Below are positions 545-62,128 of a stretch of DNA of 64,000 nucleotides, in pieces; position 1 is the first letter of the stretch, and every line of letters starts with the position of its first letter. The stretch covers positions 13,659 through 77,658 of the forward strand of contig JBDGYW010000001.1 in the NCBI GenBank assembly GCA_039588935.1, written 5' to 3'. Under the pieces are notes generated by a model that worked only from the letters and a program-made list of their open reading frames with translations, was not told where the DNA came from and ran no database searches. A program made the translations under genes and the position numbers. Origin of the DNA: Gemmatimonadota bacterium (GTDB taxonomy: Bacteria > Gemmatimonadota > Gemmatimonadetes > Gemmatimonadales > GWC2-71-9).

Positions 545-557
545 TTTAGATTCGCAA
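545..557. promoter_or_regulatory. 13-bp dyad copy TTTAGATTCGCAA
   Basis: Intergenic. Lies 17 nt upstream of the integrase ATG (opposite strand) and 6 nt upstream of the -35 of the candidate sRNA promoter. Confidence 0.7.
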
Positions 558-562
558 ACTGG

Positions 563-591
563 TTGACGAAAGGCAAGCCGAACCCTAGGAT
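563..591 (+). promoter_or_regulatory. Candidate sigma70-type promoter TTGACG-N17-TAGGAT
   Basis: -35 at 563-568, 17-nt spacer, -10 at 586-591. Divergent from int. A terminator lies about 60 nt downstream of the predicted transcription start. Confidence 0.35.
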
Positions 592-597
592 GTAGCT

Positions 598-684
598 GCA
601 GAACCCTTCGGGAACTCGGATCGTCCTCCTTGCTCCCACCCCGCTTGCGCCCCTGCTTCTTCGCCGTCGTAGGGGCGTTTTTTT
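598..684 (+). ncRNA. Candidate ~85-nt sRNA carrying an anti-RBS box UCGUCCUCCU
   Basis: Bounded by the promoter-like element (563-591) and the intrinsic terminator (648-684). No ORF. 621-630 TCGTCCTCCT is the exact complement of the AGGAGGACGA cassette found upstream of at least 14 genes here. Confidence 0.3.
648..684 (+). terminator. Rho-independent terminator (orphan, no upstream CDS)
   Basis: Stem CGCCCCT (648-654) pairs with AGGGGCG (671-677), 16-nt loop, followed by T7 (678-684). Confidence 0.55.
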
Positions 685-893
685 GCCTTGAAGTCGGCGG
701 CGCTCTTGGGTAGCCTCAATCTGCCGGGCCGATTGGGCGAGGGTTATCATCTTGACCATGAACGCCGAAAGGCATTTCCCTCCCCGCCACTTGCCCGGCA
801 TTGACAACCAGCTCTCCATTTGCCGAACAAAGGCAAAGGGCCCACCGCGAGCCTGAACGTTACAACGCGCGCAGTAGATCGCGAATCGCGGTA

Positions 894-934
894 GGGGACG
901 CCGGCACGTACAAGCAATCACGCACGGCGTCCCC
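894..934 (+). other. Strong hairpin in the int-tRNA spacer
   Basis: GGGGACGCCG (894-903) pairs with CGGCGTCCCC (925-934), a perfect 10-bp stem with a 21-nt loop. No T-run follows. Confidence 0.5.
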
Positions 935-941
935 GCCTTGA

Positions 942-1016
942 TGCGGTGAGGGACGATCCCCAGCTTGGGCTCATAACCCAATGCCCCTTCAGGTTTGACT
1001 CCTGGCGCCGCTACCA
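942..1016 (+). tRNA. tRNA-like element, anticodon CAU, encoded CCA, no canonical D-arm (pseudo- or non-canonical tRNA)
   Basis: Anticodon arm is TTGGG-CTCATAA-CCCAA, with the three G:C pairs next to the loop typical of initiator tRNA. T-arm is TCAGG-TTTGACT-CCTGG. Acceptor TGCGGTG/CGCCGCT pairs at 6 of 7 positions, then A-CCA. The D region is only 14 nt with no 4-bp stem, and the variable region is 7 nt. Confidence 0.35.
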
Positions 1017-1052
1017 AGACCGCGGCCTCTCGGTGGGGGCCTACACGCACCA

Positions 1053-1126
1053 TTCGACTTAGCTCAGCCTGGTAGAGCTCCGAACTAACACTTCGGTGGT
1101 CGAGAGTTCAATTCTCTCAGTCAAAA
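1053..1126 (+). tRNA. tRNA, anticodon AAC (Val by the code)
   Basis: Hand-folded cloverleaf. Acceptor TTCGACT/AGTCAAA pairs at 6 of 7 positions (C3:A70 mismatch). D-arm GCTC-AGCCTGGTA-GAGC. Anticodon arm CCGAA-CTAACAC-TTCGG with U33 and A37. T-arm GAGAG-TTCAATT-CTCTC. 74 nt, CCA not encoded. Confidence 0.75.
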
Positions 1127-1155
1127 CCGCCCCCACCACTCGGCCGCGGTTTTTC
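1125..1155 (+). terminator. Weak terminator-like hairpin after the tRNA
   Basis: AACCGC (1125-1130) pairs with GCGGTT (1146-1151), followed by TTTT. Short stem that overlaps the tRNA 3' end. Confidence 0.3.
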
Positions 1156-1168
1156 TGTTAGGCTCCCC

Positions 1169-1390
1169 GTGATGCGACTGATCGACGCCAACACGGGTTA
1201 CGAGCCTAAAGCAGGCGAGACCTTCAAAAACGTCCTCGGCTACGTGACGATCCTGAAGGTGCGCGAGGGCATCTTCTCGGCCAAGGTGCTGGTCTCGATC
1301 AATGGCGATGACCCGCAGTGGTGGCCGCTCACCGTGCGCTACCTACACCCCGGCTTCCCGTTTCAGAAGGTCGGCTTCCTCAACAGCTAA
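1169..1390 (+). CDS. Hypothetical protein (73 aa)
   Basis: ORF track. GTG 1169 or ATG 1172 start. First ORF after the tRNA and convergent with 1387..2091(-). No domain recognised. Confidence 0.5.
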   Translation: MMRLIDANTGYEPKAGETFKNVLGYVTILKVREGIFSAKVLVSINGDDPQWWPLTVRYLHPGFPFQKVGFLNS

Positions 1391-2489: not shown

Positions 2490-3643
2490 CGGTCCGGCCG
2501 GACAAGCTGTCGCACACGAAGATCACGCCGCGGCTGATGGAGTGGGGCCCCTGGGAGATGATGTCTCCGACCGCGCGCTGTCTATGGATAGGGCTCTACG
2601 CTAGCCCAGAGGCGCGCAGCGTCGCTCCAGGCCTCTGGAGGGGCGGTGTCGCAGTGATGGCCGAGTCCTCGTGCCTGGGAGTCACGGACACACAGAACGC
2701 ACTGAGCGAGCTGAAGGAGCGAGGCGTCCTTCTCTTCGATCCGGCGACCCGCGTCGCCATCTTCACGAGGCTTCCGGACCGTGCAATGCGCCCCGCAAAC
2801 GGCCGCTGCATCGTCCGCTACTACAAGCGATGGGCGGAGCTGCCGGATTGCCTGTTGGTGGATGCCTGGATTCATCTGCTGCTCTGGCTCTGTCACCCCA
2901 TGACGGGGGACCATGAGAAGCACTGGGACAGCACTTTTGGGGACGCGACAGGTGTAATGTCCAGCACAATCCCGATTTTCCCAATTGAAGGCGTCATTAC
3001 GAACTCCGAAAAACCTGTTGTTCTGGCCAGCACAAATGGTCATGACGAAGCCTCCCGTGGAGAACCTGAGGACAAGGTAGCACAAACATCAATGTTTCAG
3101 CAAGGATCCGATACGGTATCCGAGACTGTTGAGGATACCCTACTTATTACTTATAGCTTGTCCGGAGTAAGAGAAGGGGGTGTGGGGGAAGAGAGGACCC
3201 GGGGGCCAGCCAACGGGGCGGACTTCCTGGAGGGGCGCAGGCGGAAACCGCGGCGAAAGCCAGAGCGCCCCTTCGCCATCAAGGACCTCTTCGCGGCGCT
3301 GCGCGAGACCTCGGCCGGGCGGGTCGCAACGACGCCATGGGACGTGAGGATGGCGAAGCCCCTATGGGACGTCATCGAGGCTTGTGGCCAAGCTGAAGTA
3401 ACACTTGAGGACGTGCGGCTGGCCGGCGACTGGCTCGCGGCCGGCGGTCTCGGCTATCGCGATGACCTCGGCATCCCCTGGATCGCGAAGACTGGCGAGC
3501 TCCTCAACGCCGTCGCGAAGGCGCGGCTCTGGGGTGAGGCCGGCCGCGGAAAAGTTGAGAGTCACAAGAAGGGTTCTGGGCGAGGGGTGACGGCCCGCGA
3601 TCTTGCGGACCGAGCCGCCTCACTCGAGGCTGACGGACAGTAG
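2471..3643 (+). CDS. Hypothetical 390-aa protein; possible replication initiator/organiser (inference only)
   Basis: ORF track. GAGGGGGA RBS. Overlaps the XRE gene end. Winged-helix-like segment NALSELKERGVLLFDPATRVAIF. Sits next to the DnaA boxes. Confidence 0.65.
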   Translation: MPRRRVAVRPDKLSHTKITPRLMEWGPWEMMSPTARCLWIGLYASPEARSVAPGLWRGGVAVMAESSCLGVTDTQNALSELKERGVLLFDPATRVAIFTRLPDRAMRPANGRCIVRYYKRWAELPDCLLVDAWIHLLLWLCHPMTGDHEKHWDSTFGDATGVMSSTIPIFPIEGVITNSEKPVVLASTNGHDEASRGEPEDKVAQTSMFQQGSDTVSETVEDTLLITYSLSGVREGGVGEERTRGPANGADFLEGRRRKPRRKPERPFAIKDLFAALRETSAGRVATTPWDVRMAKPLWDVIEACGQAEVTLEDVRLAGDWLAAGGLGYRDDLGIPWIAKTGELLNAVAKARLWGEAGRGKVESHKKGSGRGVTARDLADRAASLEADGQ

Positions 3644-4889: not shown

Positions 4890-4890
4890 G

Positions 4891-7128: not shown

Positions 7129-7368
7129 ATGATCTTTAGAGTCGAAAACAAGTGGAGCGGTGCGAGGCTCGTCGAGGCGCATGCCCTGGACGAAGCGATC
7201 TCGAAGGCACGCGACGCAGAGATCGGCGAGTTCAAAACCTCCTACGCGGAGAACGCGATCCCAGGCAAGAACCTCGAGCCGAAGGATCTAGAAGAGGCAC
7301 TGGTAGACTTTCGGCCCGATCTCGAACCATTTCGGGCAGAACTTGTCGCGCAGGAGGTGCTCCGCTAG
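7129..7368 (+). CDS. Hypothetical protein (79 aa)
   Basis: ORF track. GGAAGGGAAAG RBS-like. Codons 3-7 carry a 13-bp dyad copy. Confidence 0.65.
   Translation: MIFRVENKWSGARLVEAHALDEAISKARDAEIGEFKTSYAENAIPGKNLEPKDLEEALVDFRPDLEPFRAELVAQEVLR
7135..7147. repeat. 13-bp dyad copy TTTAGAGTCGAAA
   Basis: Within codons 3-7 of CDS 7129..7368. Confidence 0.55.
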
Positions 7369-7971: not shown

Positions 7972-8478
7972 ATGAGCACCAAAGAACACCCATACCGGAA
8001 GATCGCCAGACAGGGGGTGAAGTACCGAGATGGTGAGGGGTGGATCGACTCGGGAAGTGGGAGGCTTCTCTGCCCGGGCAACTCTCGGCTTGTGACTCTC
8101 AATCTGAAACTTGGCGGTGTTGTCAACCACTGCGTGCCTATGCGAGATCTGCTCCACATCTTCCAGATATACGCCCTGCCTCCGCCCGGGTGGGAACCAC
8201 CACCGGCTCCCCCAGTCGACGCCTGCGAGGGTGAGATTGCGATTCAATCCGACGCGACAAACACGATCGTCTTTAGCCGATCCGTTCGCGGGCTTGTCGA
8301 CGATTATTGGTCGCGTCTCACGCGCGATGAAGTCCCAATCACGCTTCTACGCCCGCTTAGCTTTTGGCCAAGTGACTCGATCCGCCTCATCGGCCTCGGA
8401 GCACGCGACGGCACTGAGGTGGAACTGCACGGTTGCTTTGACCCCATCCCACCGCGCACAGGCGTGGGCTGGAGCTAA
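7972..8478 (+). CDS. Hypothetical protein (168 aa)
   Basis: ORF track. TAGGAGAACTGG-ATG. ORFan. Confidence 0.7.
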   Translation: MSTKEHPYRKIARQGVKYRDGEGWIDSGSGRLLCPGNSRLVTLNLKLGGVVNHCVPMRDLLHIFQIYALPPPGWEPPPAPPVDACEGEIAIQSDATNTIVFSRSVRGLVDDYWSRLTRDEVPITLLRPLSFWPSDSIRLIGLGARDGTEVELHGCFDPIPPRTGVGWS

Positions 8479-8506: not shown

Positions 8507-8519
8507 TTGAGACTCTAAA
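8507..8519. promoter_or_regulatory. 13-bp dyad copy TTGAGACTCTAAA
   Basis: Intergenic. Fused to the AAAGGAGG RBS of 8530. Confidence 0.65.
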
Positions 8520-9946: not shown

Positions 9947-10411
9947 GTGAAGGAGATCATGAAAAAATCAACGCCACTGACGGTCTACGACTGGGTGGCC
10001 TGTGTCGCTCGAATCGTGCCTGAGGCAACCTTTTCAGCCGGGACTCGCATCAGGGACAATAAGCACCGCGTTGTCGTCGAAACTCCATGGATGAACCTGG
10101 AGTGCGTAGTAGAGGAGGATAAGGCGGAGGCTGTTCGCGATCACTTATACACGAAGCGCCCATGTATCGCATGTGAAGGAAAGGGATATGTGGGAACCGC
10201 ACGGGCTCGATGTGCGCACTGCAATGGGGCAGATCTTGAGAGTCGCAATCGCGAGAGCGAGTGCGGCGATGAGCCGGAGTTCGCGATTTGCAGTCAATGC
10301 GGGCTCGCCATCGTGCTTGCAGCCAAGGAGAGCGGGCGACTGGTCAAACACGAGGACCCGTGTTCGCGAAAGCCCTGCCTGGGCATGGCCTCAACGGGTT
10401 CGCCGAAGTAG
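9947..10411 (+). CDS. Cys-rich protein (154 aa) with DnaJ-type CxxCxGxG-like fingers
   Basis: ORF track. GTG 9947 (ATG 9959 is an alternative). CIACEGKGYV, CAHCNG, CSQCG. Confidence 0.65.
   Translation: MKEIMKKSTPLTVYDWVACVARIVPEATFSAGTRIRDNKHRVVVETPWMNLECVVEEDKAEAVRDHLYTKRPCIACEGKGYVGTARARCAHCNGADLESRNRESECGDEPEFAICSQCGLAIVLAAKESGRLVKHEDPCSRKPCLGMASTGSPK
10236..10248. repeat. 13-bp dyad copy TTGAGAGTCGCAA
   Basis: Inside CDS 9947..10411, read as cTT GAG AGT CGC AAt (LESRN). Confidence 0.7.
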
Positions 10412-11260: not shown

Positions 11261-11273
11261 TTGAGACTCTAAA
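11261..11273. promoter_or_regulatory. 13-bp dyad copy TTGAGACTCTAAA
   Basis: Intergenic. Fused to the GGAGGACGA RBS (11274-11282) of 11284. Confidence 0.65.
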
Positions 11274-12312: not shown

Positions 12313-12569
12313 CCTGCACGCCATTCAAGAACAAGGACGGCAAGGTGATAGCGATCGTCTGCACGCGCGGTGACCGCGGACGCCGGTGCCGCGTGCCTGG
12401 CTGCGACCGCCGCGCGACCAAGCAGTGCGACTACCCGGTTACGAGTCACAAGTCGGGCACCTGCGATATGTACCTGTGCGATGCCCATGCGACCACGAAG
12501 GGCCCAGATTTGGACCACTGCCCGGCGCATGCCAGGGTCCACCAGCAGCAGGAGCTGTTTGCGCCATGA
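12309..12569 (+). CDS. Cys/His-rich small protein (86 aa)
   Basis: ORF track. ATGA overlap with the previous stop. CRVPGCDRRATKQCDY...CDMYLCDAH...CPAH. Confidence 0.7.
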   Translation: MTCTPFKNKDGKVIAIVCTRGDRGRRCRVPGCDRRATKQCDYPVTSHKSGTCDMYLCDAHATTKGPDLDHCPAHARVHQQQELFAP

Positions 12570-13449: not shown

Positions 13450-13793
13450 GTTTTCGCTGTGAATGCTGCGGCGAGCCGCAGGCACCAAGAAAGCGACCGA
13501 ATCGAGTCGTGGTTGAGACTCGCAAGGTGTTCGAGGGTCACGGCTACGATCGAAAGATGCGAACGGAGATTGCCAAGGAGGAAGACCGCTGCGATGTCTG
13601 TGCGGTCGGCACCATCGCGGTCGGCCAAGGCGGTGAGGAGCAAGCATTCAAATCTGGCCTGGTGACGCTTGGCGACCGGATGCAGAATGGCGTGTTCGAC
13701 GCGGTCATGGATCCGGAGATCTTCACCTTCAAGGGACAGGAGGGGCCCGTTGTCGGCTCGCAAGGGACAAAGCTCGTGCCGAGTGAGTCCTAG
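13446..13793 (+). CDS. Hypothetical protein (115 aa)
   Basis: ORF track. ATGA overlap. CECCG...CDVC. Confidence 0.65.
   Translation: MSFRCECCGEPQAPRKRPNRVVVETRKVFEGHGYDRKMRTEIAKEEDRCDVCAVGTIAVGQGGEEQAFKSGLVTLGDRMQNGVFDAVMDPEIFTFKGQEGPVVGSQGTKLVPSES
13513..13525. repeat. 13-bp dyad copy TTGAGACTCGCAA
   Basis: Inside CDS 13446..13793, read as gTT GAG ACT CGC AAg (VETRK). Confidence 0.7.
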
Positions 13794-15411: not shown

Positions 15412-15873
15412 ATGAGGATCATCGGGTACATCATCGGATTTCTGTGGTGCCTGCCACACACTCTGTTCGCGCTGTTGGTCATGCTCTGGTACCGGCCGCA
15501 CGGCATCCGCTGGAGTGACGGGTGCATCGAGTTCATTGCGGGTCGCAAGCGAGACAAGGACGGCAACGACCGCACGCGCATCTGGGGGAAATTTGCAGCG
15601 CAGTCATTCGCCTGTCCGGTGATCGGCTACGCCACGGAGGCCGACCGGGCGAATCCGGTCTACCGACGTCATGAGCGAACCCACACGCTCCAGGGCATGG
15701 TGCTAGGTCTCTTGTTCGGACCCATCTACGGCATCATCTGGGCGGCCATCGCCATCTTCGCGATGCCCGACGAGCCGACCCATTGGCCTGGGTGGAGACG
15801 CTCCTACTACGAGATCCCGTTCGAGCGGCAAGCGCGGCGGCGCGGCGATGACATTACGGCCTGGGGGACATAG
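15412..15873 (+). CDS. Integral membrane protein (153 aa)
   Basis: ORF track. TAGGAGAAAAC-ATG. Hydrophobic segments IIGYIIGFLWCLPHTLFALLVMLW and GMVLGLLFGPIYGIIWAAIAIFA. Confidence 0.7.
   Translation: MRIIGYIIGFLWCLPHTLFALLVMLWYRPHGIRWSDGCIEFIAGRKRDKDGNDRTRIWGKFAAQSFACPVIGYATEADRANPVYRRHERTHTLQGMVLGLLFGPIYGIIWAAIAIFAMPDEPTHWPGWRRSYYEIPFERQARRRGDDITAWGT
15536..15548. repeat. 13-bp dyad copy TTGCGGGTCGCAA
   Basis: Inside CDS 15412..15873, read as aTT GCG GGT CGC AAg (IAGRK). Confidence 0.6.
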
Positions 15874-47893: not shown

Positions 47894-47906
47894 TTGCGAC
47901 TCTCAA
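47894..47906. promoter_or_regulatory. 13-bp dyad copy (minus-strand reading TTGAGAGTCGCAA)
   Basis: Ends exactly at GTG start 47893. No SD. Confidence 0.7.
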
Positions 47907-47947
47907 TATAAGAACGGCCGCCCCTCCACCAAGGGAGAGGCGGCCGT
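47905..47947 (-). terminator. Rho-independent terminator downstream of the candidate major capsid gene
   Basis: 14-bp stem 47914-47927 / 47934-47947 with 1 mismatch and a 6-nt loop. On the minus strand it is followed by TCTTATATT. Confidence 0.6.
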
Positions 47948-48590: not shown

Positions 48591-48603
48591 TTTCGGCTCT
48601 AAA
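48591..48603. promoter_or_regulatory. 13-bp dyad copy (minus-strand reading TTTAGAGCCGAAA)
   Basis: Intergenic, 21 nt upstream of ATG 48569 and just upstream of its RBS. Confidence 0.6.
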
Positions 48604-48681: not shown

Positions 48682-50211
48682 CTAGAAGCCGCCCGCGAAG
48701 ATTCCGGTGTAGAGGTTGGCCATCTTGTCGTAGCCGGGGCCGACCTTCGGCACCTGGCGCACGAAGCTGCGAGAGGGCACCGGGGCGACCATCGCGCGAC
48801 GCGGGACGGCCTTGAGCATGGCGGGGTTCTGCGTGCCGATGCCGGTGCCGATGTTGGAGCCGCCGAGCGCTTCCTCGAAGCCCTCGCCCATCTCCTCCAT
48901 CATGCCGAGCTCCTCTTCGGCGCCCATGTCGATGTACTCGCCCATCTCCTCCTCGTAGCCGCCGACATCGATGTACTCGCCGACGTCCACGTACTCGCCC
49001 ATGGCCGAGTCGTAGATGCCCTCGTCACCGGACAGACCGATGGTGCCGAGCCAGTTCGCCGGCACGTACGAGGTGAGGACGATCTCGATGAAGTTCAGGC
49101 CGAGGCCCATGAGGACTTCCTGCCGGTACTTCCGCAGGAGTGCCACCTTCTTGGTGGCGAAGCTGCCCGCGAGCAGCATCAGGCCGGCGCCGGCCGGCGC
49201 CGCGTGCTGGCCGAGGCTCGAGAGTCCGGGGACCATCGGGAGGACTTTGCGAGCCACAACCCGGCCACCGTACATCGCCGCGGCGACGGGGATCGCCTTC
49301 TTGACGGCATCGACGACGCCACCCTGGACGTTCGCGCGCATCTTGTAGCGGCGCATGAAGGCCTTGGAGCCGGAGCTGCCGTGAGCCTTCTGGAACTTGA
49401 TGGTCTTGCGAGCGCGCTTCACGCTCTTGGAGACGCGGCGCTTGCCCTTCCACTTCCGGCTCTTGAACTTCCGCTTCAGGCTCTTGCGATGGGCCTTGCG
49501 GGTGCGACGCCAGGACTTGATCGCCTTGGTTCCGCCTTTCCGCTTTCGCTTGCGCCATCCCTTGAGGGCCGCACGCCGACGAGCGGCCTTGGTCGTCTTG
49601 CTCTTCTTCTTGGCCACAGTCTTCCTCCTGGTGGTCTTGGCGGCGGTCTTCCTCTTGGTTGTCTTCCGCCTGGTCGTGGTGGTCTTGCGGGCCCGCTTCT
49701 TCGCGGTGGCTTTCCGCTTCCGGGTCGCGGCGGCCTTCTTGGCGGCGGCGCTCCGCTTGCGAGCCTTCGTGGCCCGGGTCGCGGCGGCCTTCTTGGCGGC
49801 GCGCTTCCGCATGGCGGAGATGGCGCGCGGCGTCTTGGCCTTCTTGGCGGTCTTCCGCTTCTTGGCCGGCTTCCGCTTCTTGCCTCCCCAAGTCGCGCCC
49901 TTCGTGATGCGCGGCTTGTACTTGGCCTTCATCTTCACGCCGACCGGGTTTTTGCGACGAGCCTTCGCGAGACTCTTGAGCCGGGCCTTGCGAGCAGCGC
50001 CGTGCAGCTTGCTCAGCGGGGTCTTCCGCTTGGCCACTTTTCGTTTGGCCTTGGGCATTCGCTTCCCTCCTGGGTTCTTGACAGACTGAGGAACTCCCGG
50101 CGGTCGACCTTTCCTAACGGGCTTGCGTCGGCCCGAGGCAGCCTTCTGCTTCGGGATGTACCGTTTCGTCGATCGTCGCGTAGTTCGCGGGTTGACGTAG
50201 AAAAGGGGCAT
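48682..50211 (-). CDS. Hyper-basic protein (509 aa): ~300-aa K/R/A/T low-complexity region, hydrophobic core, acidic tract, C-terminal TGIFAGGF
   Basis: ORF track. Repeated KKAA.TRK.K motifs. The C-terminal ~200 aa are paralogous to 18105..18767. Confidence 0.75.
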   Translation of the reverse strand: MPLFYVNPRTTRRSTKRYIPKQKAASGRRKPVRKGRPPGVPQSVKNPGGKRMPKAKRKVAKRKTPLSKLHGAARKARLKSLAKARRKNPVGVKMKAKYKPRITKGATWGGKKRKPAKKRKTAKKAKTPRAISAMRKRAAKKAAATRATKARKRSAAAKKAAATRKRKATAKKRARKTTTTRRKTTKRKTAAKTTRRKTVAKKKSKTTKAARRRAALKGWRKRKRKGGTKAIKSWRRTRKAHRKSLKRKFKSRKWKGKRRVSKSVKRARKTIKFQKAHGSSGSKAFMRRYKMRANVQGGVVDAVKKAIPVAAAMYGGRVVARKVLPMVPGLSSLGQHAAPAGAGLMLLAGSFATKKVALLRKYRQEVLMGLGLNFIEIVLTSYVPANWLGTIGLSGDEGIYDSAMGEYVDVGEYIDVGGYEEEMGEYIDMGAEEELGMMEEMGEGFEEALGGSNIGTGIGTQNPAMLKAVPRRAMVAPVPSRSFVRQVPKVGPGYDKMANLYTGIFAGGF

Positions 50212-50327
50212 TCGATCCGACTTGCGTTAGGTTGTGTCGTCCGAGCCGGAGAGCCCCCTGACGAGTAGCCTCGATGATGCGGGAGAAAGTCGTGACCTGT
50301 CAAGGACTTCGGGCGCGCCCGGGCGAC

Positions 50328-50340
50328 TTGCGACTCTCAA
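50328..50340. promoter_or_regulatory. 13-bp dyad copy (minus-strand reading TTGAGAGTCGCAA)
   Basis: In the 177-nt spacer upstream of 48682..50211. On the minus strand a TTGACA hexamer (50303-50298) follows about 24 nt downstream. Confidence 0.65.
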
Positions 50341-51345: not shown

Positions 51346-51678
51346 CTACTTCTTGGCTTCCTCGCTGAACACGTACTTCCAGAGGAGGTAGCCGGCGATC
51401 CCGAGCATAAGCAATTCCTTGTTGCTGATGTCGAGGGTGATTCCCGCGAGCGGATTGCCGCTCTTGCGAGTCGCAATCGAGCCCCTTGGATAGAGTCCTT
51501 TTCCGATCAAGACAGCCCCCATGGGTAGCGGTTGTGCGGCGTCGTCGGGCGCAACGCCCAGTTTTCCTCCGCCGCGGATCTTCGGTTTCTTGGCGAACAC
51601 TCCGTCGCGCAGCTCTCCAGAGGCGCGATAGTAATCGTAGCCCTTGCCATTCCAAACGGAGTAGTCGGCCATGATCAT
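51346..51678 (-). CDS. C-terminally anchored membrane protein (110 aa)
   Basis: Tail of track ORF 51346..52449. ATG 51678 (ATGA overlap). TM segment LLMLGIAGYLLWKYVF. Confidence 0.65.
   Translation of the reverse strand: MIMADYSVWNGKGYDYYRASGELRDGVFAKKPKIRGGGKLGVAPDDAAQPLPMGAVLIGKGLYPRGSIATRKSGNPLAGITLDISNKELLMLGIAGYLLWKYVFSEEAKK
51464..51476. repeat. 13-bp dyad, perfect palindrome TTGCGAGTCGCAA
   Basis: Inside CDS 51346..51678 (coding strand ATT GCG ACT CGC AAG). Confidence 0.75.
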
Positions 51679-52833: not shown

Positions 52834-53823
52834 TTACTTGAGAGCCACAACCGCGATCAGGAGGACCGCTCCGCCTGCCACCAGGACTGGAACGAGCGGG
52901 AAGGGTTTCGCCGGGGCGGCATAGGCAGCACCGGGCTGGTCCGCACAGGCCGACGCGACCAGGTTTGCACCCTTCTGGCCAACCTCCGGCGGTGCGCCGG
53001 CTGCCGCGGCACCTCCGGAAGCAGCGAGCTGGCCCACCCTCGAGCCAGCGACATTGCAGGCCAGGCTACCGATCGAGCTGATGACCCCCTTGCCCCATTC
53101 GGCGGCCTTCATACCGGCAGGCGCCGCGGTCGCGGTCGCCTTGCTTACGCCCTTCGCAACCCAGGACAGCGGGTTGTACCAGGCGCCGAGTGCGCCCTGC
53201 ATGCCCTCCAGGACGACGATCTCGGAGGCCTCCCCGTAGGCGGCCAGGCCGAGCATCGACTTGACCTCGACACGGCCGGTCTGGCCGGCCCGGATGAACT
53301 CCTCAAGAAGGCCCATCGAGGTACTCGCGGCGATCGCCTGGTGGAGCGCGTGCTTCGGCGGCAAACCTTGTCGCTCGAACTTCCTACCCTGTGCGGCGAC
53401 GCGGCCCCAGAGCTTCGGATCGAGCTGATCGAAGACTGCCTTGAGGGCTGGCTTTCGCTCCTCGACTGGAAGCTGCCGGATGCTCGACATGATGCGGCTG
53501 GCCACCTGCTGTCCAAAGTTGGCGATCGGGTCCTTGCCCTGAACTGCGCCGGGCTCGTCGTCGCCCAGATACTTCGGGACCAGGACGTCGATGGATTTCC
53601 GCGGGTAGTACTTCGTGCGGTGAACCCCACGCCCGATCGGCTCCTGGCCAACGTAGTTCGGATAGGCGTAGCCCGGCTGCCACGGTGTCGGGATCGCTGG
53701 GTTGTCGATGCTCTTGCGACGCCGATACTTCGTGGTCGCCGTGCCGCGGCCAGGTGGCTCTGCCATCACATAGTCGGGAATAGCGTACTGCCCATCCCAC
53801 GGGTGCGGTTTGCGAAAGAACAT
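52834..53823 (-). CDS. C-terminally anchored protein with an N-terminal duplicated 28-aa motif (329 aa)
   Basis: ORF track. YAIPDYVMAEPPGRGTATTKYRRRKSID / YAYPNYVGQEPIGRGVHRTKYYPRKSID. TM segment LVPVLVAGGAVLLIAVVAL. Confidence 0.7.
   Translation of the reverse strand: MFFRKPHPWDGQYAIPDYVMAEPPGRGTATTKYRRRKSIDNPAIPTPWQPGYAYPNYVGQEPIGRGVHRTKYYPRKSIDVLVPKYLGDDEPGAVQGKDPIANFGQQVASRIMSSIRQLPVEERKPALKAVFDQLDPKLWGRVAAQGRKFERQGLPPKHALHQAIAASTSMGLLEEFIRAGQTGRVEVKSMLGLAAYGEASEIVVLEGMQGALGAWYNPLSWVAKGVSKATATAAPAGMKAAEWGKGVISSIGSLACNVAGSRVGQLAASGGAAAAGAPPEVGQKGANLVASACADQPGAAYAAPAKPFPLVPVLVAGGAVLLIAVVALK
52838..52850. promoter_or_regulatory. 13-bp dyad copy TTGAGAGCCACAA
   Basis: In the last codons of 52834..53823. 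On the minus strand it reads TTGTGGCTCTCAA-GT-AAGGAG, directly upstream of the RBS of 51918..52823. Confidence 0.6.
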
Positions 53824-53831: not shown

Positions 53832-54362
53832 CTAGGCGACCGGCCAGACTTTGGCGGCCACGACGCGGCTGAGCATACGCTTGGTTCGACTGGCGGCGAC
53901 TGGATCGAGCGCGATCCAGCGATTGGTTTGTGGCTCTAAAGCCTCGGTGAAGACGTGCGAGAACTGGCGCTGCCCATGATGGAACATGTGCCGAAACGCA
54001 ACGGTGACGATTCGCGCCCGGCCGCCCCCCATGAGCACCATGGCCGTGAGCAGCGCGCAGGAATCATCGCAGTCGAGGGACGGCTTCTTGCCACTCACAA
54101 GTTCGCGAGCGACCACGTAGGGAGCCCTGACGAGCTCGACGGTCCTGGGGTCCCGCATGTAGCGGGTGTTGCCCAGGACGAAGTAGTAGTAGGCGAGGTA
54201 CTCGTCGAGGTAGGCCTTTCCCGGCAGACCCGCGACGATCTGCTCGAGGAAGAGACGCAGGTTATAGTCACGCTGCGAGGAGAGCGCAGCGTCGATGATC
54301 ACGCCGACTGTCTGTGGAGCACCGCGGTACGGAAACTTCAGTACTCGATCGTGGCCTCGCAA
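53832..54362 (-). CDS. Transglutaminase-like cysteine peptidase fold protein (176 aa)
   Basis: ORF track. Cys-His-Asp arrangement SLDCDDSCALLTAMV ... FSHVFTEA ... IALDP, as in the transglutaminase core. Confidence 0.65.
   Translation of the reverse strand: MRGHDRVLKFPYRGAPQTVGVIIDAALSSQRDYNLRLFLEQIVAGLPGKAYLDEYLAYYYFVLGNTRYMRDPRTVELVRAPYVVARELVSGKKPSLDCDDSCALLTAMVLMGGGRARIVTVAFRHMFHHGQRQFSHVFTEALEPQTNRWIALDPVAASRTKRMLSRVVAAKVWPVA
53928..53940. repeat. 13-bp dyad copy (minus-strand reading TTTAGAGCCACAA)
   Basis: Inside CDS 53832..54362. Confidence 0.6.
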
Positions 54363-54363
54363 C

Positions 54364-56070
54364 TCATGTTTCTTCTACCGGAGAGTCGTCGGGAGGGGTC
54401 TCGGGGTCGCCGAGGTCGTCGGGAAGGTCGTCGGTCAGATCGTCTGGAGCCTCTTCGTCTGGCTCCTCCGCTGGCTCTGGCTCCTCACTGATTTCGCCAG
54501 TGAGCAGGAACTCGGCGACCTGCCTGACCCAAACTCGACCGGGTACCGTCGCAAGCGGCGAGCCCGTCTGTATTTTAGCCATCTTACCAAGGAAGACGTC
54601 AACCCCGAGCCGACGCAGGCCGTCGAGAATGTCGTCCGGCAGCATGTTGCGTGCCGTAGCGGCAAAGACGGCAGGAGGCGTGTTATTTCGGATAGCTGTC
54701 TCCATGAAGGCCACGGCCTTGGCCATGTCCTCGTCGGAAACCTCAGGGATTTCGGGCTCGCCGGCCGCGCGGCGCGCCTCCCTCTCGGCCTGTTTGGCAG
54801 CCTGCTGCTCGCGCATCTTGTCCACCACGCCCTTGGGCATCTCGACGACCCGACCGTCCTGGAGGCGCACCTGCACGAGCTGCTCGTCCTCTTCCCCCTC
54901 CGCCCCTACTCCGGCCGCCGCCCCTGCGACGCGCCCGGCGATGGCTCCGGCAATCGGCGAGTTCGTGACCATTTCCAGTGCGCGCTCCCATCCGGCCTTG
55001 TCGCCGCCGCCGCTTGGCACCAGGGCCTCGAAGGCTTCCTTGACGGTCACGAGATTCTGGATCTGATCGATTGGCCCCTGCTCCTTTCGCGTGCGGAGCG
55101 CGACTGTCTCGGTCTCGGCCTTGTTGACCTCGCGCTCCAGACGCTTCTGGATGTCCCTTAGTCCATCGATCCGCATCTCGAATCCGTGCCGCTGGGAGTC
55201 CATCGCCTGCTGGTGCGCCGACTTCAGAGTATGAACTTCTCGCTGGCAGGCCGATCGGACCTCAGCGAGTTCTCGCTCAAAGCGAGCCTCATAGCGCTTC
55301 AGCTCCTCGAGGTGGAAGTCTTCACGCCGCGCCATCCTCGCCTCGTACTGCTGGCGGATCGCTTCCAAATTGTTGGAGTGCGTGGCTTCCTTGCTCTCCA
55401 TGATCCCGAACAGGCGCTCCTGGCCGGTGTTGTCGGGCTCCTTGTTGAGAGCCTCAACCAGGCGGTCGTCCTTGTCGGCCAGGCGCTCGCGGAGTGCCTT
55501 CATCTCCTCGCGCATCGGGGCGAGGATCAACTCCAACATCTCCAGGTCCTTACCTCCGCTATCGGCGCGGCTATCACGGAGTTGTCGCGCTTCTTCGCGG
55601 GATTCACGTACTTGCTGGGTCATGACGTTCATCGCCTGGCTCGCGAGGCCCTGATTCTCGCCGTTGCTGCTCGCCTGCTGCTCGTCTTCTTCGTCGTCGG
55701 CGTTGAGTAGGGAGTCCAGTTTTGGCGCTCCGGCAACGTCGAAGGTCCGACCCTCGATGTAGCCCCACCGACGTTTCTTGGTCTTCGGGTCCCTGCGGTA
55801 GCCCTCGACCCGAATCTGGAACTTGCCACCACCGTGTTCTTCCTTGATGCGATCGACGGTGACCGGTTCCTGGTAGGTTTCGAGTGCGCCGTCGACCTTC
55901 ACGCCGCGGTGTTTCGTCGGCGACAGGCGTGCGAGCCGCACCTTGATTTCGCCCGTGGCCCCGAACTGCTGGATCCACTCGTAGAGATCCTTGTCGGTTT
56001 CGCGCTGGATGTCACCGATCGGGTCATCCTTCGCGTCTGGTTCGTCAGTCTTTTGCGTCGTCGCTGCCAT
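54364..56070 (-). CDS. Large coiled-coil protein with an acidic C-terminus (568 aa), scaffold-like (inference)
   Basis: ORF track 54364..56112. ATG 56070 (MAATTQ) preferred. About 250 aa of heptad-like E/R/K/L sequence and a D/E/P-rich tail. Confidence 0.7.
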   Translation of the reverse strand: MAATTQKTDEPDAKDDPIGDIQRETDKDLYEWIQQFGATGEIKVRLARLSPTKHRGVKVDGALETYQEPVTVDRIKEEHGGGKFQIRVEGYRRDPKTKKRRWGYIEGRTFDVAGAPKLDSLLNADDEEDEQQASSNGENQGLASQAMNVMTQQVRESREEARQLRDSRADSGGKDLEMLELILAPMREEMKALRERLADKDDRLVEALNKEPDNTGQERLFGIMESKEATHSNNLEAIRQQYEARMARREDFHLEELKRYEARFERELAEVRSACQREVHTLKSAHQQAMDSQRHGFEMRIDGLRDIQKRLEREVNKAETETVALRTRKEQGPIDQIQNLVTVKEAFEALVPSGGGDKAGWERALEMVTNSPIAGAIAGRVAGAAAGVGAEGEEDEQLVQVRLQDGRVVEMPKGVVDKMREQQAAKQAEREARRAAGEPEIPEVSDEDMAKAVAFMETAIRNNTPPAVFAATARNMLPDDILDGLRRLGVDVFLGKMAKIQTGSPLATVPGRVWVRQVAEFLLTGEISEEPEPAEEPDEEAPDDLTDDLPDDLGDPETPPDDSPVEET

Positions 56071-57047: not shown

Positions 57048-57060
57048 TTCAGACTCGCAA
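57048..57060. promoter_or_regulatory. 13-bp dyad copy TTCAGACTCGCAA
   Basis: 37 nt upstream of ATG 57011 (opposite strand). Confidence 0.6.
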
Positions 57061-57208: not shown

Positions 57209-57638
57209 CCCGGTTTTGAGCCGTCTTACCGGGGCCCGCAACCACCGGAATCCGCAGGGTCAGCGGCCAGGGCCCGCGGTCGCACCGGGGACACCCCCAC
57301 CGGGAGGCACAAAAACCGACATGTCGGATACGCTCGCCCGGTGGCCACCCGTAGCAAGAACTATGCCAGCCCGGTTTAGACTCGCAATCGCCCCACACCA
57401 GCCTACACTGGCCCCGGTTGAGGATTCGTCACTTCCCGGTGAGAATTCACCACAAATCCGGTGAAAAGTTGACACCTACAGGTAGGCGCCCGGTGATTAC
57501 GCGGGGTTACCCGGTTGGTCCCCGGATTGCACTACCCTTGGTTGGACCCATGTCCCACCTTTACCGACAGCTGGCCCCGGTGGCCAGTTCCCGCCCCCCG
57601 GTAACGCGCTGCGTTACCCCTGGTGTGGGCCCCGGTGC
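57209..57638 (+). repeat. Array of 12 same-orientation CCCGGT-type hexamers, preceded by 4 inverted copies
   Basis: Direct copies start at 57209, 57337, 57370, 57413, 57435, 57457 (TCCGGT), 57489, 57510, 57521 (CCCGGA), 57576, 57597 and 57631. Inverted ACCGGR copies start at 57228, 57244, 57284 and 57299. Confidence 0.8.
57375..57387. promoter_or_regulatory. 13-bp dyad copy TTTAGACTCGCAA
   Basis: Inside the non-coding control region, overlapping CCCGGT copy 57370. Confidence 0.6.
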
Positions 57639-60241: not shown

Positions 60242-60258
60242 ACCGGGGTTGCGGGCAC

Positions 60259-60271
60259 TTGTGGCTCGCAA
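60259..60271. promoter_or_regulatory. 13-bp dyad copy TTGTGGCTCGCAA
   Basis: Intergenic. Its right half begins the left arm of a 21-bp inverted repeat. Confidence 0.55.
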
Positions 60272-60360
60272 CTGCGCGCGGGGCCCAAACTGACGATAGG
60301 CGTTGTGCCTGTTCGCCAGAATTTAAAGTTGGAATGAGATTGGGCCCCGCGCGGAGTTGC
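60268..60360 (+). other. Long inverted repeat (21-bp arms, 1 mismatch, 51-nt loop)
   Basis: GCAACTGCGCGCGGGGCCCAA (60268-60288) pairs with TTGGGCCCCGCGCGGAGTTGC (60340-60360). Ends 3 nt before the AAGGAGGAC RBS region of 60379. Confidence 0.7.
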
Positions 60361-60378
60361 GAAATCAAGGAGGACACC

Positions 60379-60822
60379 ATGAGAGAGTATGAGATACACG
60401 GCCGAATCGGCTGCTGGGATGATTTGCGAGGCCTCGGGATTCACGCACTGACCGGCGAAGCGTGCGGCTGGAGCCTGCGATTGCTCTGCGACGTGACCGC
60501 GCGCGGAAAACAGGTGGTCGAACGCTTCCTCGGTGGGAACGTGACGATCGCGGCCGAAAGCAACTGGAACGGCGGATCGGACGGCGAGGAGCACGTCGGA
60601 AGCGTCATGCTGCCCTGCAGCATCCTGCCGGAGCTGGCTGCGTTTGCGCTCGCGTTCCGCGGGCCCCACGGAGTTGTGATCACCAAGGACGGCGATGCAG
60701 TCGAGTACACGGGGCACTGGGACCAGGAGTTCTACCCGATTCGCCGCATCGTCCGCTTACCCGAGAAGCCCGCGCAGCTTGGCGACCGCAATGAGCACGC
60801 CATGAGCGGCCGGGTAATCTGA
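60379..60822 (+). CDS. Hypothetical protein (147 aa)
   Basis: ORF track 60259..60822 trimmed to ATG 60379 behind AAGGAGGACACC. Confidence 0.7.
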   Translation: MREYEIHGRIGCWDDLRGLGIHALTGEACGWSLRLLCDVTARGKQVVERFLGGNVTIAAESNWNGGSDGEEHVGSVMLPCSILPELAAFALAFRGPHGVVITKDGDAVEYTGHWDQEFYPIRRIVRLPEKPAQLGDRNEHAMSGRVI

Positions 60823-61118
60823 TGCCCTGGATCATCGATCGCGACTACATCTCGTCCGGCGAAGATCGCGTTCCGTCCAAGAAGGGAACGAATGCCTTCG
60901 CCGTTGGCGTCTGTTCGCGCTCCTGGCTGAAGCTCACTTCCGAGCAACGCAAGAAGGCGACCGCGCGGTTCCGCATGCTCGATGACGACGGCAACGTCTA
61001 CTACGGTGGGCGCTGCACTGCCGACGTTGAGTTTCAGCCGCTCGACGACTTTGGCATGCCGAATGCCGGCTGCACGACGATCCAATTTCGCGAAAACGGA
61101 GAGTGGAGGACACTGTAA
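60822..61118 (+). CDS. Hypothetical protein (98 aa)
   Basis: ORF track. 1-nt overlap (TGATG). Confidence 0.65.
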   Translation: MPWIIDRDYISSGEDRVPSKKGTNAFAVGVCSRSWLKLTSEQRKKATARFRMLDDDGNVYYGGRCTADVEFQPLDDFGMPNAGCTTIQFRENGEWRTL

Positions 61119-61315
61119 TGAAACGCTACTGGATCCTGTGGACTTACATTGCCAACTACAATTCGATTCCGCTGACGGTGACTGCGGATTCACCAATGCG
61201 CGCCGCCGAAGTGGTCTTCGAGGGCTTCAGTGAGGAATTTCGCGAGAAGGCAACCCTTCACATCTTCGATCGCCCCCCCGCGATGACCATTCGCAAAGGA
61301 GTGACCAATGGCTAG
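61118..61315 (+). CDS. Hypothetical protein (65 aa)
   Basis: ORF track 61103..61315 trimmed to ATG 61118 (TAATG overlap). Confidence 0.6.
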   Translation: MKRYWILWTYIANYNSIPLTVTADSPMRAAEVVFEGFSEEFREKATLHIFDRPPAMTIRKGVTNG

Positions 61316-61496
61316 TCGCCAATTCGCACTCACAATCAAGCTGGGCAACGATGCGATGCGGACCCTGGAGGATGTTGCCGATGCGCTCGAAAGCGTTGCC
61401 AGAAGCCTCCGGGTCGGAACCTGCTACGGACAAACGCGCCCCATCCACGACATCAACGGCAATCGGGTCGGTGAGTGGAAGTGGCCGGAGAGGTAG
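61308..61496 (+). CDS. Hypothetical protein (62 aa)
   Basis: ORF track. Overlaps the previous gene end by 8 nt. Confidence 0.6.
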   Translation: MASRQFALTIKLGNDAMRTLEDVADALESVARSLRVGTCYGQTRPIHDINGNRVGEWKWPER

Positions 61497-61507
61497 GGTG
61501 ACATCCA

Positions 61508-61870
61508 ATGATCGAATATCCATACGGCGATGACGCCTGGGTCAAGTGCTCCTGCTGCGGAGCGCTGATCGAGAACGATCCCGACCACAACGTCTACCTG
61601 CACGAACCAGACGGCTCGCCCTACCCGAGCGATGACGGCTTTGGGATGTGCATCCCCTGCGGCGGCGATCCCAAGGCCGATCGCAGCGACACCTCCGAGG
61701 CGAATCTCAGAAAACGCCTCGGCTGGGGCATGCAGTGCTTCTACGACACGCGCATCGAGACGCTGGAGAAGAGTCTCAACGAGAAGAACGCTGCCAAGTT
61801 CAAGGCGATGCCCTATGGGGAGAAGGTCGCGTTCATCATGGCCGCGATCGAAGACGGGATCATGTTCTGA
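61508..61870 (+). CDS. Hypothetical protein (120 aa)
   Basis: ORF track. CSCCG...CIPCGG. Confidence 0.65.
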   Translation: MIEYPYGDDAWVKCSCCGALIENDPDHNVYLHEPDGSPYPSDDGFGMCIPCGGDPKADRSDTSEANLRKRLGWGMQCFYDTRIETLEKSLNEKNAAKFKAMPYGEKVAFIMAAIEDGIMF

Positions 61871-61880
61871 GGAGGATTCC

Positions 61881-62108
61881 ATGGCCGACGTCTACAAGCC
61901 CGAAGCGAGCTACGAATTCATGCGCGAGCTTGCCCTCGTTGCCAAAAACAACGGCGACGCCTACCGCGATGGAAAGAACGCGGAGCGCGCGGTAGAGGAG
62001 GCCTTCCGTGATTACCAGCATCGCAAACGCGAGCAGGAGCGGGAGGATCTTTCCCTCTGCAGGGATGCTCTCATTCGCGAACTGGCCGACTACTGGTCAG
62101 AGCACTAA
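61881..62108 (+). CDS. Hypothetical protein (75 aa)
   Basis: Tail of track ORF 61632..62108. ATG 61881 behind GAGGAGGATTCC. Confidence 0.65.
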   Translation: MADVYKPEASYEFMRELALVAKNNGDAYRDGKNAERAVEEAFRDYQHRKREQEREDLSLCRDALIRELADYWSEH

Positions 62109-62115
62109 CCGCGAC

Positions 62116-62128
62116 TTGCGAGTCGCAA
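62116..62128. promoter_or_regulatory. 13-bp dyad, perfect palindrome TTGCGAGTCGCAA
   Basis: Intergenic, 4 nt upstream of the GGAGGACGA RBS (62133-62141) of 62143. Confidence 0.75.

Follow-up and report, generated by a model that had tools for sequence, protein, structure and literature searches.

The window analysed here is a stretch of 64,000 nucleotides (nt) of contig JBDGYW010000001.1 (positions 13,659 to 77,658), from an assembly assigned to a Gemmatimonadota bacterium. It belongs to a viral genome of about 80 kb (80,611 bp), of which both flanks were examined as well, and its most conspicuous feature is a 13-bp dyad of the type TTGCGA-S-TCGCAA, dispersed over the whole element. The genes of the window form two divergent arms which leave a 0.9-kb control region at 57.0-57.9 kb. 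At the left edge lies the 5′ part of a tyrosine integrase gene (1..527, minus strand, ATG at 527), cut by the end of the window, and the presence of this integrase marks the element as temperate. A complete tRNA-Val gene with the unusual anticodon AAC is located next to it (1053-1128, plus strand), and this neighbourhood is likely the attP region. Almost none of the window proteins matched Pfam, PHROGs or NCBIfam, no terminase, portal, polymerase, sigma factor or partition ATPase was recognised among them, and the phages in INPHARED gave no match by DNA or by protein. Proteins of the Xre type, with a winged helix-turn-helix (wHTH) and with a ribbon-helix-helix (RHH) are encoded in the window. 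Contigs and stretches used for comparison, which derive from metagenomes, metagenome-assembled genomes (MAGs) and IMG/VR, carry L-numbers. The left flank (L023) is 100% identical to the window in the overlap. The contig used as right flank (L022) is about 93% identical over an overlap of 2.6 kb, from which we conclude that it represents the same or a near-identical genome; it encodes a C5 DNA methylase, a ScoMcrA_N protein, a beta-clamp-like protein and an orphan ParB-family protein.

A preliminary description of the window had listed 39 copies of the dyad. Every one of them is present in the sequence, including the five perfect palindromes TTGCGA[G/C]TCGCAA at 18160, 42467, 45033, 51464 and 62116. 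With up to two mismatches, TTGCGASTCGCAA has 34 matches in the window versus 2.1 expected from dinucleotide-preserving shuffles, and the invariant skeleton TTNNGASTCNNAA occurs 25 times (0.3 expected). A symmetric position weight matrix, iterated from the sites until convergence and applied with a threshold of at least 12 bits, detected 53 sites in the window versus 2.1 in dinucleotide shuffles. The listed copies are real, but their number was too low, as the matrix adds 14 sites starting at 1198, 3555, 8090, 12439, 26320, 27923, 28882, 30021, 31442, 33838, 39826, 49247, 54088 and 55445. A further 13 sites were found in the two flanks at the same density as in the window, which brings the whole genome to about 65. 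The dispersed dyad is thus a real feature that had been understated. Its consensus reads TT[G>T][C/A/T, never G]G[A>G]-S-[T>C]C[G/T/A][C>A]AA, and no excess of isolated half-sites was found in the window.

The two halves of the dyad vary independently of each other. Positions 3 and 11 are complementary in 33 of the 53 sites, where 30.7 are expected for independent halves; the corresponding values are 19 (20.3 expected) for positions 4 and 10, and 32 (35.9 expected) for positions 6 and 8. This independence excludes a hairpin, in DNA or in RNA, and assigns the symmetry to a homodimer on duplex DNA. An RNA element or other hairpin, such as a repetitive extragenic palindrome (REP), a terminator or a processing site, was ruled out on the same lack of covariation and on the Rfam search, in which nothing but the tRNA matched. 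With regard to transcription the sites show no bias in orientation (centre base G:C 30:19, p = 0.15), and the half-sites upstream and downstream are of equal strength (p = 0.5).

A signal at the DNA level, running through coding sequence, had been suspected before, and codon shuffling bears this out: 34 of the 53 sites (64%) lie inside called coding sequences (CDS), against 3.6 after synonymous shuffling and 1.05 after shuffling of the codon order. The previously noted enrichment between genes was confirmed too, since the non-coding 12% of the window holds 19 of the 53 sites, a density of 2.45 per kb compared with 0.60 per kb in CDS, or about four times as high. The shared reading frame of the intragenic copies, which had been taken as part of the signal, did not stand up. 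Frame 1 is used by 21 of the 34 real sites and likewise by 235 of 301 chance matches in codon-shuffled genes, so that a frame-specific coding signal was rejected; the preference is a by-product of codon usage, frame 1 being the cheapest frame in this genome. The spacing is even, as had been described, with a coefficient of variation of the gaps of 0.55, a value as low as this being reached in none of 20,000 random placements. The gaps between the 53 window sites are under-dispersed, with a mean of 1184 bp and a minimum of 160 bp, and under-dispersed spacing was found again in four relatives (L001, L012, L020 and L021). The presumed early region (57.9-64 kb plus 0-7 kb) is sparser, with about 0.37 sites per kb. 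Approximately 10-12 sites (about 20%) abut a Shine-Dalgarno sequence or a start codon, and in the window and its relatives the distances from the end of the motif to the start cluster at 0 and at 10-16 nt.

The same motif is present at 0.44-0.9 sites per kb in L001-3, L006, L012, L015, L019, L020, L021, L024, L031 and L094. These motif-rich relatives have a GC content of 58-66%, and apart from one 193-aa protein their proteins are about 35-60% identical to those of the window. When an exact 14-mer was searched in IMG/VR, a high density appeared, among the 120 matches listed, in the family member L094 alone. Among the sites at corresponding places are a pair within the divergent control region and single copies in front of a TTGACA -35 box, in the gap between a terminator and a fibre-gene start, and inside a 108-aa gene. 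In the control region, the proximal dyad (57048..57060) precedes the leading gene of the structural operon (ATG 57011) by 36 nt, an arrangement likewise seen in L001 (1514), L006 (2152) and L019 (857). The distal dyad (57375..57387) follows at 327 bp; in L001, L006 and L019 the two copies are 320, 357 and 316 bp apart, respectively. The dyad at 50328..50340 is situated 24 nt upstream of the -35 box (50303) of a sigma-70-like promoter, TTGACA-18-CATCAT (50274..50303, minus strand), which precedes the gene of a basic protein. Its position is kept in L001, L004, L006, L012 and L019-L021, and across genomes this copy is found 4-24 nt from TTGACA.

The dyad at 47894..47906 is placed directly behind the intrinsic terminator of the 193-aa gene (47914..47947, minus strand; 14-bp stem and T-run) and flush with the GTG (47893) of a fibre or adhesin gene. 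That the motif ends exactly at this start had been pointed out before, and the start itself is backed by N-terminal homology with paralogues and relatives. The order of terminator, dyad and fibre-gene start recurs in L001, L006, L012, L015, L019 and L021; the distance from the dyad to the start is 0-19 nt at these sites, and the gene begins 13-32 nt behind the strong terminator with the motif alone in between. The perfect palindrome at 51464..51476 encodes I-A-T-R-K within the 108-aa gene and is kept at the same codons in L001, L006, L012, L015, L019 and L020, with the rare codons ATT and ACT. Four motif-rich genomes write Ile-Ala-Thr/Gly with rare ATT plus ACT or GGT, whereas motif-poor L004 encodes Ile-Ala-Thr via ATC and ACC.

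Other copies have counterparts in relatives as well. Inside genes, TTGCGGGTCGCAA at 41385..41397 is syntenic with L012 16298, and the perfect palindrome at 42467..42479 with L012 13843. The dyad at 45777..45789, 6 nt after a stop codon (...ATGTAG), corresponds to L012 9964, L019 17585 and L021 20420; the gene that follows begins right at the end of the motif in L012, while in L021 it takes in the final base of the motif. The dyad at 46522..46534, 3 nt after the stop codon of the fibre gene (46538-47893, minus strand), corresponds to L012 9229. The copies at 20077, 45777 and 46522 all lie flush with or close to stop codons. The dyad at 48591..48603, 21 nt before the ATG (48569, minus strand) of the 193-aa gene, is common to L012, and its left half is gone in L001, L004 and L006. 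Genes which begin (with GTG, TTG or ATG) flush with the end of a dyad or overlapping it were noted at 47893, at 7864 and 9964 in L012 and at 20420 in L021. They lack a separate Shine-Dalgarno sequence; the GAG which the motif contains 6 nt before the start may act as a weak ribosome-binding site, or the mRNAs may be leaderless.

In L010, L014, L016-L018, L025-L030 and L032-L034 the motif was not found. However, three of these genomes (L018, L029 and L030) carry a dyad of the type TTGCCA-C-TGGCAA (TTGCCACTGGCAA), which is likewise built 6-1-6 and takes the same position in front of the TTGAC promoter. The dyad is TTCCA-S-TGGAA in L027 and TTCCG-NN-CGGAA in L017, and the sister clades with another dyad have about 0.15-0.2 sites per kb. 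Hybrid pairs of half-sites, TTGCCA with TCGCAA, are present in motif-rich genomes. The comparison of these sequences indicates that a dyad operator at the basic-protein promoter is a family-wide trait, that its specificity was switched between clades, and that it was multiplied to about one per 1.2 kb in the clade of the window. A candidate dyad GAACG-N6-CGTTC in L025, L026 and L032 was discarded, since it is part of a tandem repeat of about 125 bp which is apparently coding and not dispersed. Each repeat unit contains GAACGGCGTCTCGTTC, and the arrays extend over 19477-20464 in L025, 19853-20354 in L026 and 17226-18108 in L032; the gene concerned probably encodes a repeat-domain protein. The relatives were binned in MAGs of four unrelated lineages.

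The remaining sites of the window occur in various settings. Near gene starts, the dyad TTTAGATTCGCAA at 545..557 precedes the integrase ATG (527) by 17 nt, as had been stated, the gene leaving the window at its left edge on the minus strand; the dyad also lies 5 nt upstream of a plus-strand promoter-like site, TTGACG-17-TAGGAT. Two identical copies, TTGAGACTCTAAA, abut Shine-Dalgarno sequences: at 8507..8519 the sequence is GGAGG with the start codon 10 nt on, and at 11261..11273 the site precedes the 11284 gene, a paralogue of the 8530 gene. The dyad TTTAGAGTCGAAA (7135..7147) occupies codons 3-7 of an open reading frame (ORF) at 7129-7368, and TTGTGAGTCTCAA (14661..14673) codons 2-5 of the ORF 14657-15403, right behind the preceding stop codon. 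On the minus strand, the dyad at 25749..25761 falls within the final codons of 25730-26389, 15 nt ahead of the start of 25443-25733; TTGTGGTTCTAAA (33838..33850) precedes ATG 33823 by 14 nt; TTTCGAGTCGAAA (39826..39838) is located at a gene end, 36 nt before the start at 39789; and the dyad at 52838..52850 is likewise contained in the final codons of a gene (52834-53823) and precedes ATG 52823 by 14 nt. The perfect palindrome at 62116..62128 is found 14 nt before ATG 62143, with the Shine-Dalgarno sequence AAGGAGGA, and TTGTGGCTCGCAA (60259..60271) lies 17 nt after a stop codon.

Several dyads border the fibre or adhesin genes. The weakest site of all, TTTAAAGCCGCAA with 12.3 bits (18788..18800), is located 13 nt before the ATG of the paralogue at 18814. 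The dyad TCGAGACTCGCAA (20077..20089) is flush with the TAG stop codon of 18814-20076 and is directly followed by GTG 20090; for the gene beginning there, the former label 'LamG' has no support from Pfam. Two copies of TTTAGAGCCACAA lie 13 nt before ATG 22136 (22110..22122) and 14 nt before ATG 23576 (23549..23561), the second junction being a duplicate of the first. The genes 18814, 22136 and 23576 on the plus strand and 46538-47893 on the minus strand are four paralogues with the common N-terminus M-A/S-N-L/V-F-x-N/S-L-A-V-P, and each of them has dyads at its borders and none inside.

Intragenic are TTGTGACTCTCAA (8090..8102), TTGAGAGTCGCAA at 10236..10248 (frame 1) and again at 33017..33029, TTACGAGTCACAA (12439..12451), TTGAGACTCGCAA (13513..13525), TTGCGGGTCGCAA (15536..15548), the perfect palindrome TTGCGAGTCGCAA (18160..18172), TTGCGACCCGCAA (26320..26332), TTGCGACTCTGAA (27251..27263), TTGCGAATCGCAA (27923..27935), GTTAGACTCGCAA (32200..32212), TTTAGAGCCGCAA (39344..39356), TTGCGCGTCGCAA (40328..40340), TTGAGACTCGAAA (43904..43916), the perfect palindrome at 45033..45045 and TTGTGGCTCTAAA (53928..53940). 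The weaker site TTACGAGCCTAAA (1198..1210) lies in ORF 1172-1390, TTGAGAGTCACAA (3555..3567) in ORF 2471-3643, TTGCGGCTCGCAA (30953..30965) within the HTH_31 gene 30841-31149 (minus strand), TTTAGAGCCTCAA (38181..38193) in a glycosyltransferase gene (37628-38815, minus strand), TTGCGAGCCACAA (49247..49259) inside the basic-protein gene and TTGAGAGCCTCAA (55445..55457) in the gene of a 568-aa coiled-coil protein. A weak or hybrid site, TTGCCACTCACAA (54088..54100), has a left half of the TTGCCA type, and a hybrid site is also present in the homologous gene of L006 (5253). Intergenic copies are TTTTGGCTCGAAA (30021..30033), TTGTGAATCGCAA (36664..36676) and TTTAGAGTCGCAA (35130..35142), the last of which lies between called genes although it had been placed in a coding frame before. 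Two weak sites of 12.9 bits each, TTGAGGCTCTCAT and TTGAGACCCTCGA, are found at 28882..28894 and 31442..31454.

A second repeat family consists of inverted repeats, TTGAGAACAAAC-N4-GTTTGTTATCAA, with a 10-bp stem and a 4-nt loop. It extends from 4886 to 11254, a region of small genes, where copies lie in at least seven intergenic spacers (5344, 5870/5886, 6748/6765, 7083/7099, 8489, 9910/9926 and 11243), with one more copy at 30085-30114. In two cases the inverted repeat is located directly upstream of a 13-bp dyad, and at 8507 the repeat GTTTGTTATCAA comes immediately before it. Two paralogous Xre-type helix-turn-helix (HTH) proteins with a common C-terminal ALAVLLxP (30101-30427 and 30841-31149, minus strand) flank a winged-HTH protein (30431-30844). 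As a further property of the window as a whole, several 6-bp palindromes are very much rarer than a Markov expectation predicts (ACGCGT 0 vs 14, TTCGAA 2 vs 14, GTGCAC 2 vs 9.5, CACGTG 3 vs 12.4), which suggests restriction avoidance.

The most conserved gene of the element encodes the 193-aa protein (47988-48569, minus strand), for which at least 723 metagenomic homologues of about 72-96% identity were found on contigs of 66-111 kb. No family annotation was found for it. A fold search gave weak matches, nearly all of them to single jelly-roll capsids (AlphaFold predicted local distance difference test score, pLDDT, 60; E >= 0.012). The protein appears to mark a large, uncharacterised virus family which is absent from the reference phage collections. 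Its neighbour, the basic protein (48682-50211, minus strand, 509 aa), starts at ATG 50211, where MPLFYVNP is kept in the relatives, and not at 50058. The N-terminal 270 aa or so are histone-H1-like and rich in Lys, Arg and Ala; hydrophobic segments and an acidic tail rich in Glu, Gly and Tyr make up the rest. The 5′ leader of this gene contains the invariant GGGGGCTCTCCGG. The intergenic stretch downstream of it (48570-48681) is conserved at the nucleotide level in the relatives (GGCGGGACGACACCCGACCTGG ... CCGAAAnACTACGTACAG) and may be an RNA element or the promoter of the 193-aa gene. Several proteins of the structural module have C-terminal membrane-like segments. No match came up in IMG/VR for the basic, the 568-aa, the ParB-like or the beta-clamp-like protein, nor in the GTDB genomes for the 568-aa protein.

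Which protein reads the dyads can be narrowed down by comparing the candidates with the distribution of the motif. The HTH proteins of the window had been proposed as binders. For one of them, the HTH_31 protein 30841-31149, no other genome yielded a homologue, so that it cannot read a motif shared by the whole clade and was rejected. Also rejected was the RHH protein 37482-37631, which is antitoxin-like and only 35% identical in L020. A reader within the structural module was searched for by presence and absence, and this comparison of window proteins failed to separate motif-rich from motif-free relatives. The ParB-like protein of the right flank (L022 10752-11732) escaped the preliminary description because its gene lies about 8 kb past the right end of the window. 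It matches the profiles HTH_ParB at 2.6e-8 and ParB_N at 3.8e-7, and with 23.7 bits it passes the cut-off of 22.3 bits for the KorB domain; its best matches in the PDB are Spo0J and Noc, with E-values of about 1e-9. Where the GERRxRA box of the ParB_N fold, a CTPase fold, is expected, it carries an intact GGRRLRA. The ParA-binding motif LG[KR]GL, as defined in PMC12704722, was not found in its N-terminus, nor was an obvious amphipathic helix seen there by eye. Orphan ParB-like proteins with a canonical HTH occur on prophages, where they are uncharacterised (PMC12704722).

From these observations we arrive at a tentative reading, held with slightly less than even confidence: the dyads would be binding sites of a clade-specific homodimeric protein, most likely the virus's own orphan ParB/KorB/Noc-like protein. 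What the sequences themselves show is the motif with its symmetry, selection at the DNA level, even spacing, syntenic conservation and different forms in different clades, and besides it a ParB-like gene in the genome. The protein was chosen as likely reader on two grounds, that the genome encodes it and that the ParB family uses dispersed palindromes; to our knowledge, this family is the sole class of proteins with a documented use of many dispersed palindromic sites. Binding of the motif, action as a clamp dependent on cytidine triphosphate (CTP) and an effect of the binding are all predicted by analogy. Each monomer would read one half-site, TT-K-H-G-A. The protein would nucleate at the approximately 65 sites, about 1.2 kb apart, and then spread or slide over the whole 80-kb genome. 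It would probably act on transcription, by silencing or insulating operons in the lysogen or by setting the time at which the late promoter fires, and/or would organise the genome. Judging by the sites upstream of the late promoter, behind the terminator and in the control region, its main effect would be to silence or insulate transcription in the lysogen. A role as repressor sites or as a DNA-organising site had been among several options left open in the preliminary description, so that the reading now favoured was already included there.

Several points weigh against the ParB-like protein as reader. No partner resembling ParA, KorA, TrbA or IncC was recognised in the window and its two flanks, which together reach about 81 kb and leave at most a few kb at a contig end outside. 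The parB gene itself contains two dyads, which is no more than the average density predicts. In sequence, the HTH is nearest to P1 ParB and Noc and not to KorB. IMG/VR searches with the protein and with a ParB profile gave no ParB of this family, the profile finding unrelated phages only. Phage proteins with a ParB fold often act otherwise, for instance as activators of T-dioxygenases, though these lack an HTH (PMC13229309). The approximately 10-12 sites at a Shine-Dalgarno sequence or start codon leave room for a role at gene starts, which a sliding clamp does not require. Finally, other small DNA-binding proteins that were not recognised could be the reader.

Among the alternatives, an immunity system of the stoperator type appears unlikely, though more deserving of attention than the others. 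The dyads would then be operators of a prophage repressor (Xre, wHTH or RHH) which blocks elongating RNA polymerase throughout the genome in the lysogen. Stoperators of Cluster A mycobacteriophages are 13 bp long, occur about once per 1.5-2 kb in and between genes of temperate phages, and differ in motif between lineages (PMC6550527). The preliminary description had noticed the likeness, and part of it holds: the element is temperate judging by its integrase, candidate repressors of all three types are encoded, the length of 13 bp and the density of about one per 1.2 kb are similar, many sites lie between genes behind stop codons or terminators, and the sequence of the dyad differs from clade to clade. 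However, stoperators are asymmetric, oriented to transcription and bound by an immunity repressor (PMC6550527), whereas the dyads are symmetric and free of orientation. With these two defining features absent, the dyads do not belong to the stoperator family. Moreover, immunity operators diversify, but the dyad is near-constant in a broad clade although the proteins of the relatives are 40-60% identical. The lack of homologues of HTH_31 and the low identity of the RHH protein in L020 speak against this explanation as well, and the intergenic region from which the Xre-type HTH gene (2235) and a methyltransferase-family gene (1387-2181) diverge is free of sites. A second alternative, which we rate as more doubtful, holds that evenly placed sites organise the genome or serve its encapsidation by anchoring the viral DNA or nucleating its condensation, for instance on the H1-like protein or at an internal membrane, much as Noc ties DNA to the membrane or in the manner of dispersed packaging signals. 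The regular spacing in several genomes, with sites wherever coding permits, agrees with this, as do the 509-aa H1-like protein, the membrane-like C-terminal segments in the structural module and the absence of a recognised terminase or portal in the window; Noc, a relative of ParB, brings DNA to the membrane (PMC8429893). The weak matches of the 193-aa protein, nearly all to single jelly-roll capsids, would fit too, but this assignment comes from a low-confidence model with the values given above. Against this as a primary role, the presumed early region is sparser, key sites are fixed relative to promoter and terminator, which suggests transcription, sister clades get by on about 0.15-0.2 sites per kb, and the N-terminus of the ParB-like protein has no obvious amphipathic helix. 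A union of this idea with that of a ParB-like reader is a long shot: an orphan ParB/Noc-like clamp loading at the approximately 65 dyads would both silence the prophage and gather the genome, at an internal membrane or an H1-like core, for encapsidation, in a family of temperate, possibly non-tailed and membrane-containing viruses of about 70-90 kb whose specificity switches between TTGCGA-S-TCGCAA, TTGCCA-C-TGGCAA and TTCCA-S-TGGAA.

It is improbable that a conserved protein of the host, such as a global regulator or a nucleoid protein, recognises the motif, or that the motif is a repeat spread through the host genome, for example of the uptake-sequence kind, which the virus shares. The late promoter is sigma-70-like and thus points to use of the host machinery, and the density of the dyads is similar to that of uptake sequences; but the conservation of position, with clade variants at one and the same place, fits a co-inherited viral factor better, the four unrelated MAG lineages give no consistent host, and in contrast to REPs the sites show no capacity for hairpin formation. 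Quite unlikely, too, is an element of initiation, with transcription starting just downstream of the motif on leaderless mRNAs, or on leaders of a Shine-Dalgarno sequence only, by means of a virus-specific factor. The clusters of motif-to-start distances, the flush starts without Shine-Dalgarno sequence (47893; L012 7864 and 9964) and the fibre gene with the motif alone between terminator and start would be explained in this way. Against it, a palindrome has no direction and the sites no bias in orientation, 64% of them are intragenic, the site at the basic-protein gene lies at a variable distance (4-24 nt) upstream of a conventional TTGACA promoter, and no RNA polymerase or sigma factor was recognised. 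A general association with sigma-70 promoters was rejected as well, given that promoter-like sites are no commoner than in shuffles and that the distance to the -35 box varies by the same 4-24 nt. The explanation with the least to commend it, to the point of being hardly credible, is a hairpin (terminator or processing site) or a methylation signal of the CcrM type. Perfect copies could fold into a 5-bp stem with a 3-nt loop, and GANTC is often central while a methyltransferase is encoded at 17546-18025. Nevertheless, the arms do not covary, as is plain for positions 4 and 10, and the idea of a CcrM-type site fails on its own terms: GANTC occurs in just 32 of the 53 sites (60%), and A or T is disfavoured at the centre (4 of 53), a position to which CcrM is indifferent. 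The methyltransferase is real and of the Dam family, but no tie to the motif was found. An apparent depletion of GANTC (209 observed vs 350 expected from dinucleotide shuffles) disappears with a higher-order Markov expectation, the ratio of observed to expected being 0.88 in the window and 0.92-1.29 in the relatives, and was set aside as an artefact of composition.

If the ParB-like protein does read the sites, the virus would possess a clamp of the KorB/Noc type acting genome-wide from about 65 loading sites, a number far above that of any plasmid KorB. The clades would then offer a natural series of specificity switches at one fixed place upstream of a promoter, from which the evolution of specificity in the ParB family might be read. 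The distance which a clamp travels, with sites about 1.2 kb apart, and the purpose of the dyad repeats in other phages, such as those of Cluster O, would become testable. Even without the link to ParB, selection at the DNA level within coding sequence is unusually clear here, since rare codons are kept over a protein divergence of 40-60%.

In comparison with known systems, the operators of KorB from the IncP-1 plasmids RK2/RP4 are closest in build. The KorB operator TTTAGC-S-GCTAAA is a 13-bp 6-1-6 dyad with a central C or G (PMC2680271), and KorB is a CTP-dependent sliding clamp which silences promoters at long range (PMC11790492). The viral sites (TTTAGA-S-TCTAAA or TTGCGA-S-TCGCAA) have the same 6-1-6 build, central C/G and T-rich outer half, are likewise dispersed over a mobile element of 60-80 kb with some copies near promoters and some far from them, and are accompanied by a protein with ParB fold and HTH above the Pfam threshold for the KorB domain. 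The systems differ in that the virus is a temperate element with integrase and not a plasmid, has about 65 sites which are mostly intragenic while RK2 carries 12 KorB operators, and shows no recognised KorA, TrbA or IncC partner; its HTH is nearer to P1 ParB and Noc, and binding of the KorB type is a prediction here. Noc is an orphan member of the ParB family without ParA partner, which nucleates on scattered palindromic Noc-binding sites (NBS) and spreads as a CTP clamp (PMC8429893); with 1.2e-9 it ranks among the top hits in the PDB for the viral protein. In Bacillus subtilis, however, the NBS has 16 bp and another sequence, the replicon is a 4-Mb chromosome and Noc controls cell division; its N-terminal amphipathic membrane helix is not evident in the viral protein.

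Among phages, short repeats just upstream of gene starts are also known as the start-associated sequences of Cluster K and the 21-nt repeats of T1/TLS-like phages (PMC4351075; PMC11447400). These are directional and confined to intergenic regions, unlike the palindromic dyads. A better match is found in the Cluster O mycobacteriophages (Corndog), with more than 30 copies of a 17-bp dyad repeat of unknown function and with proteins containing ParB-like domains (PMC4351075). Like the sites described here, these repeats are genome-wide dyads without orientation, many at gene junctions and about a third inside genes, with predicted binding by a dimer. Their sequence and spacing differ (TGTTCGGNNNCCGAACA, 7-3-7), their arms are invariant whereas those of the viral dyad are degenerate at positions 3 and 4, and the phages are not obviously temperate and are unrelated to this virus. 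The Cluster O repeat comes closest in distribution, and the KorB protein with its operator is the closest in site architecture and candidate reader. Two hallmarks of a ParB/KorB/Noc-type system, a palindromic dimer site of 13-16 bp and, on the same replicon, a protein with ParB_N and HTH_ParB matches, both appear to be present, the gene for the latter outside the window. What seems to be new is the occurrence in a virus of ParB/KorB/Noc-type sites, or at least of dimer operators, in unprecedented number and regularity.

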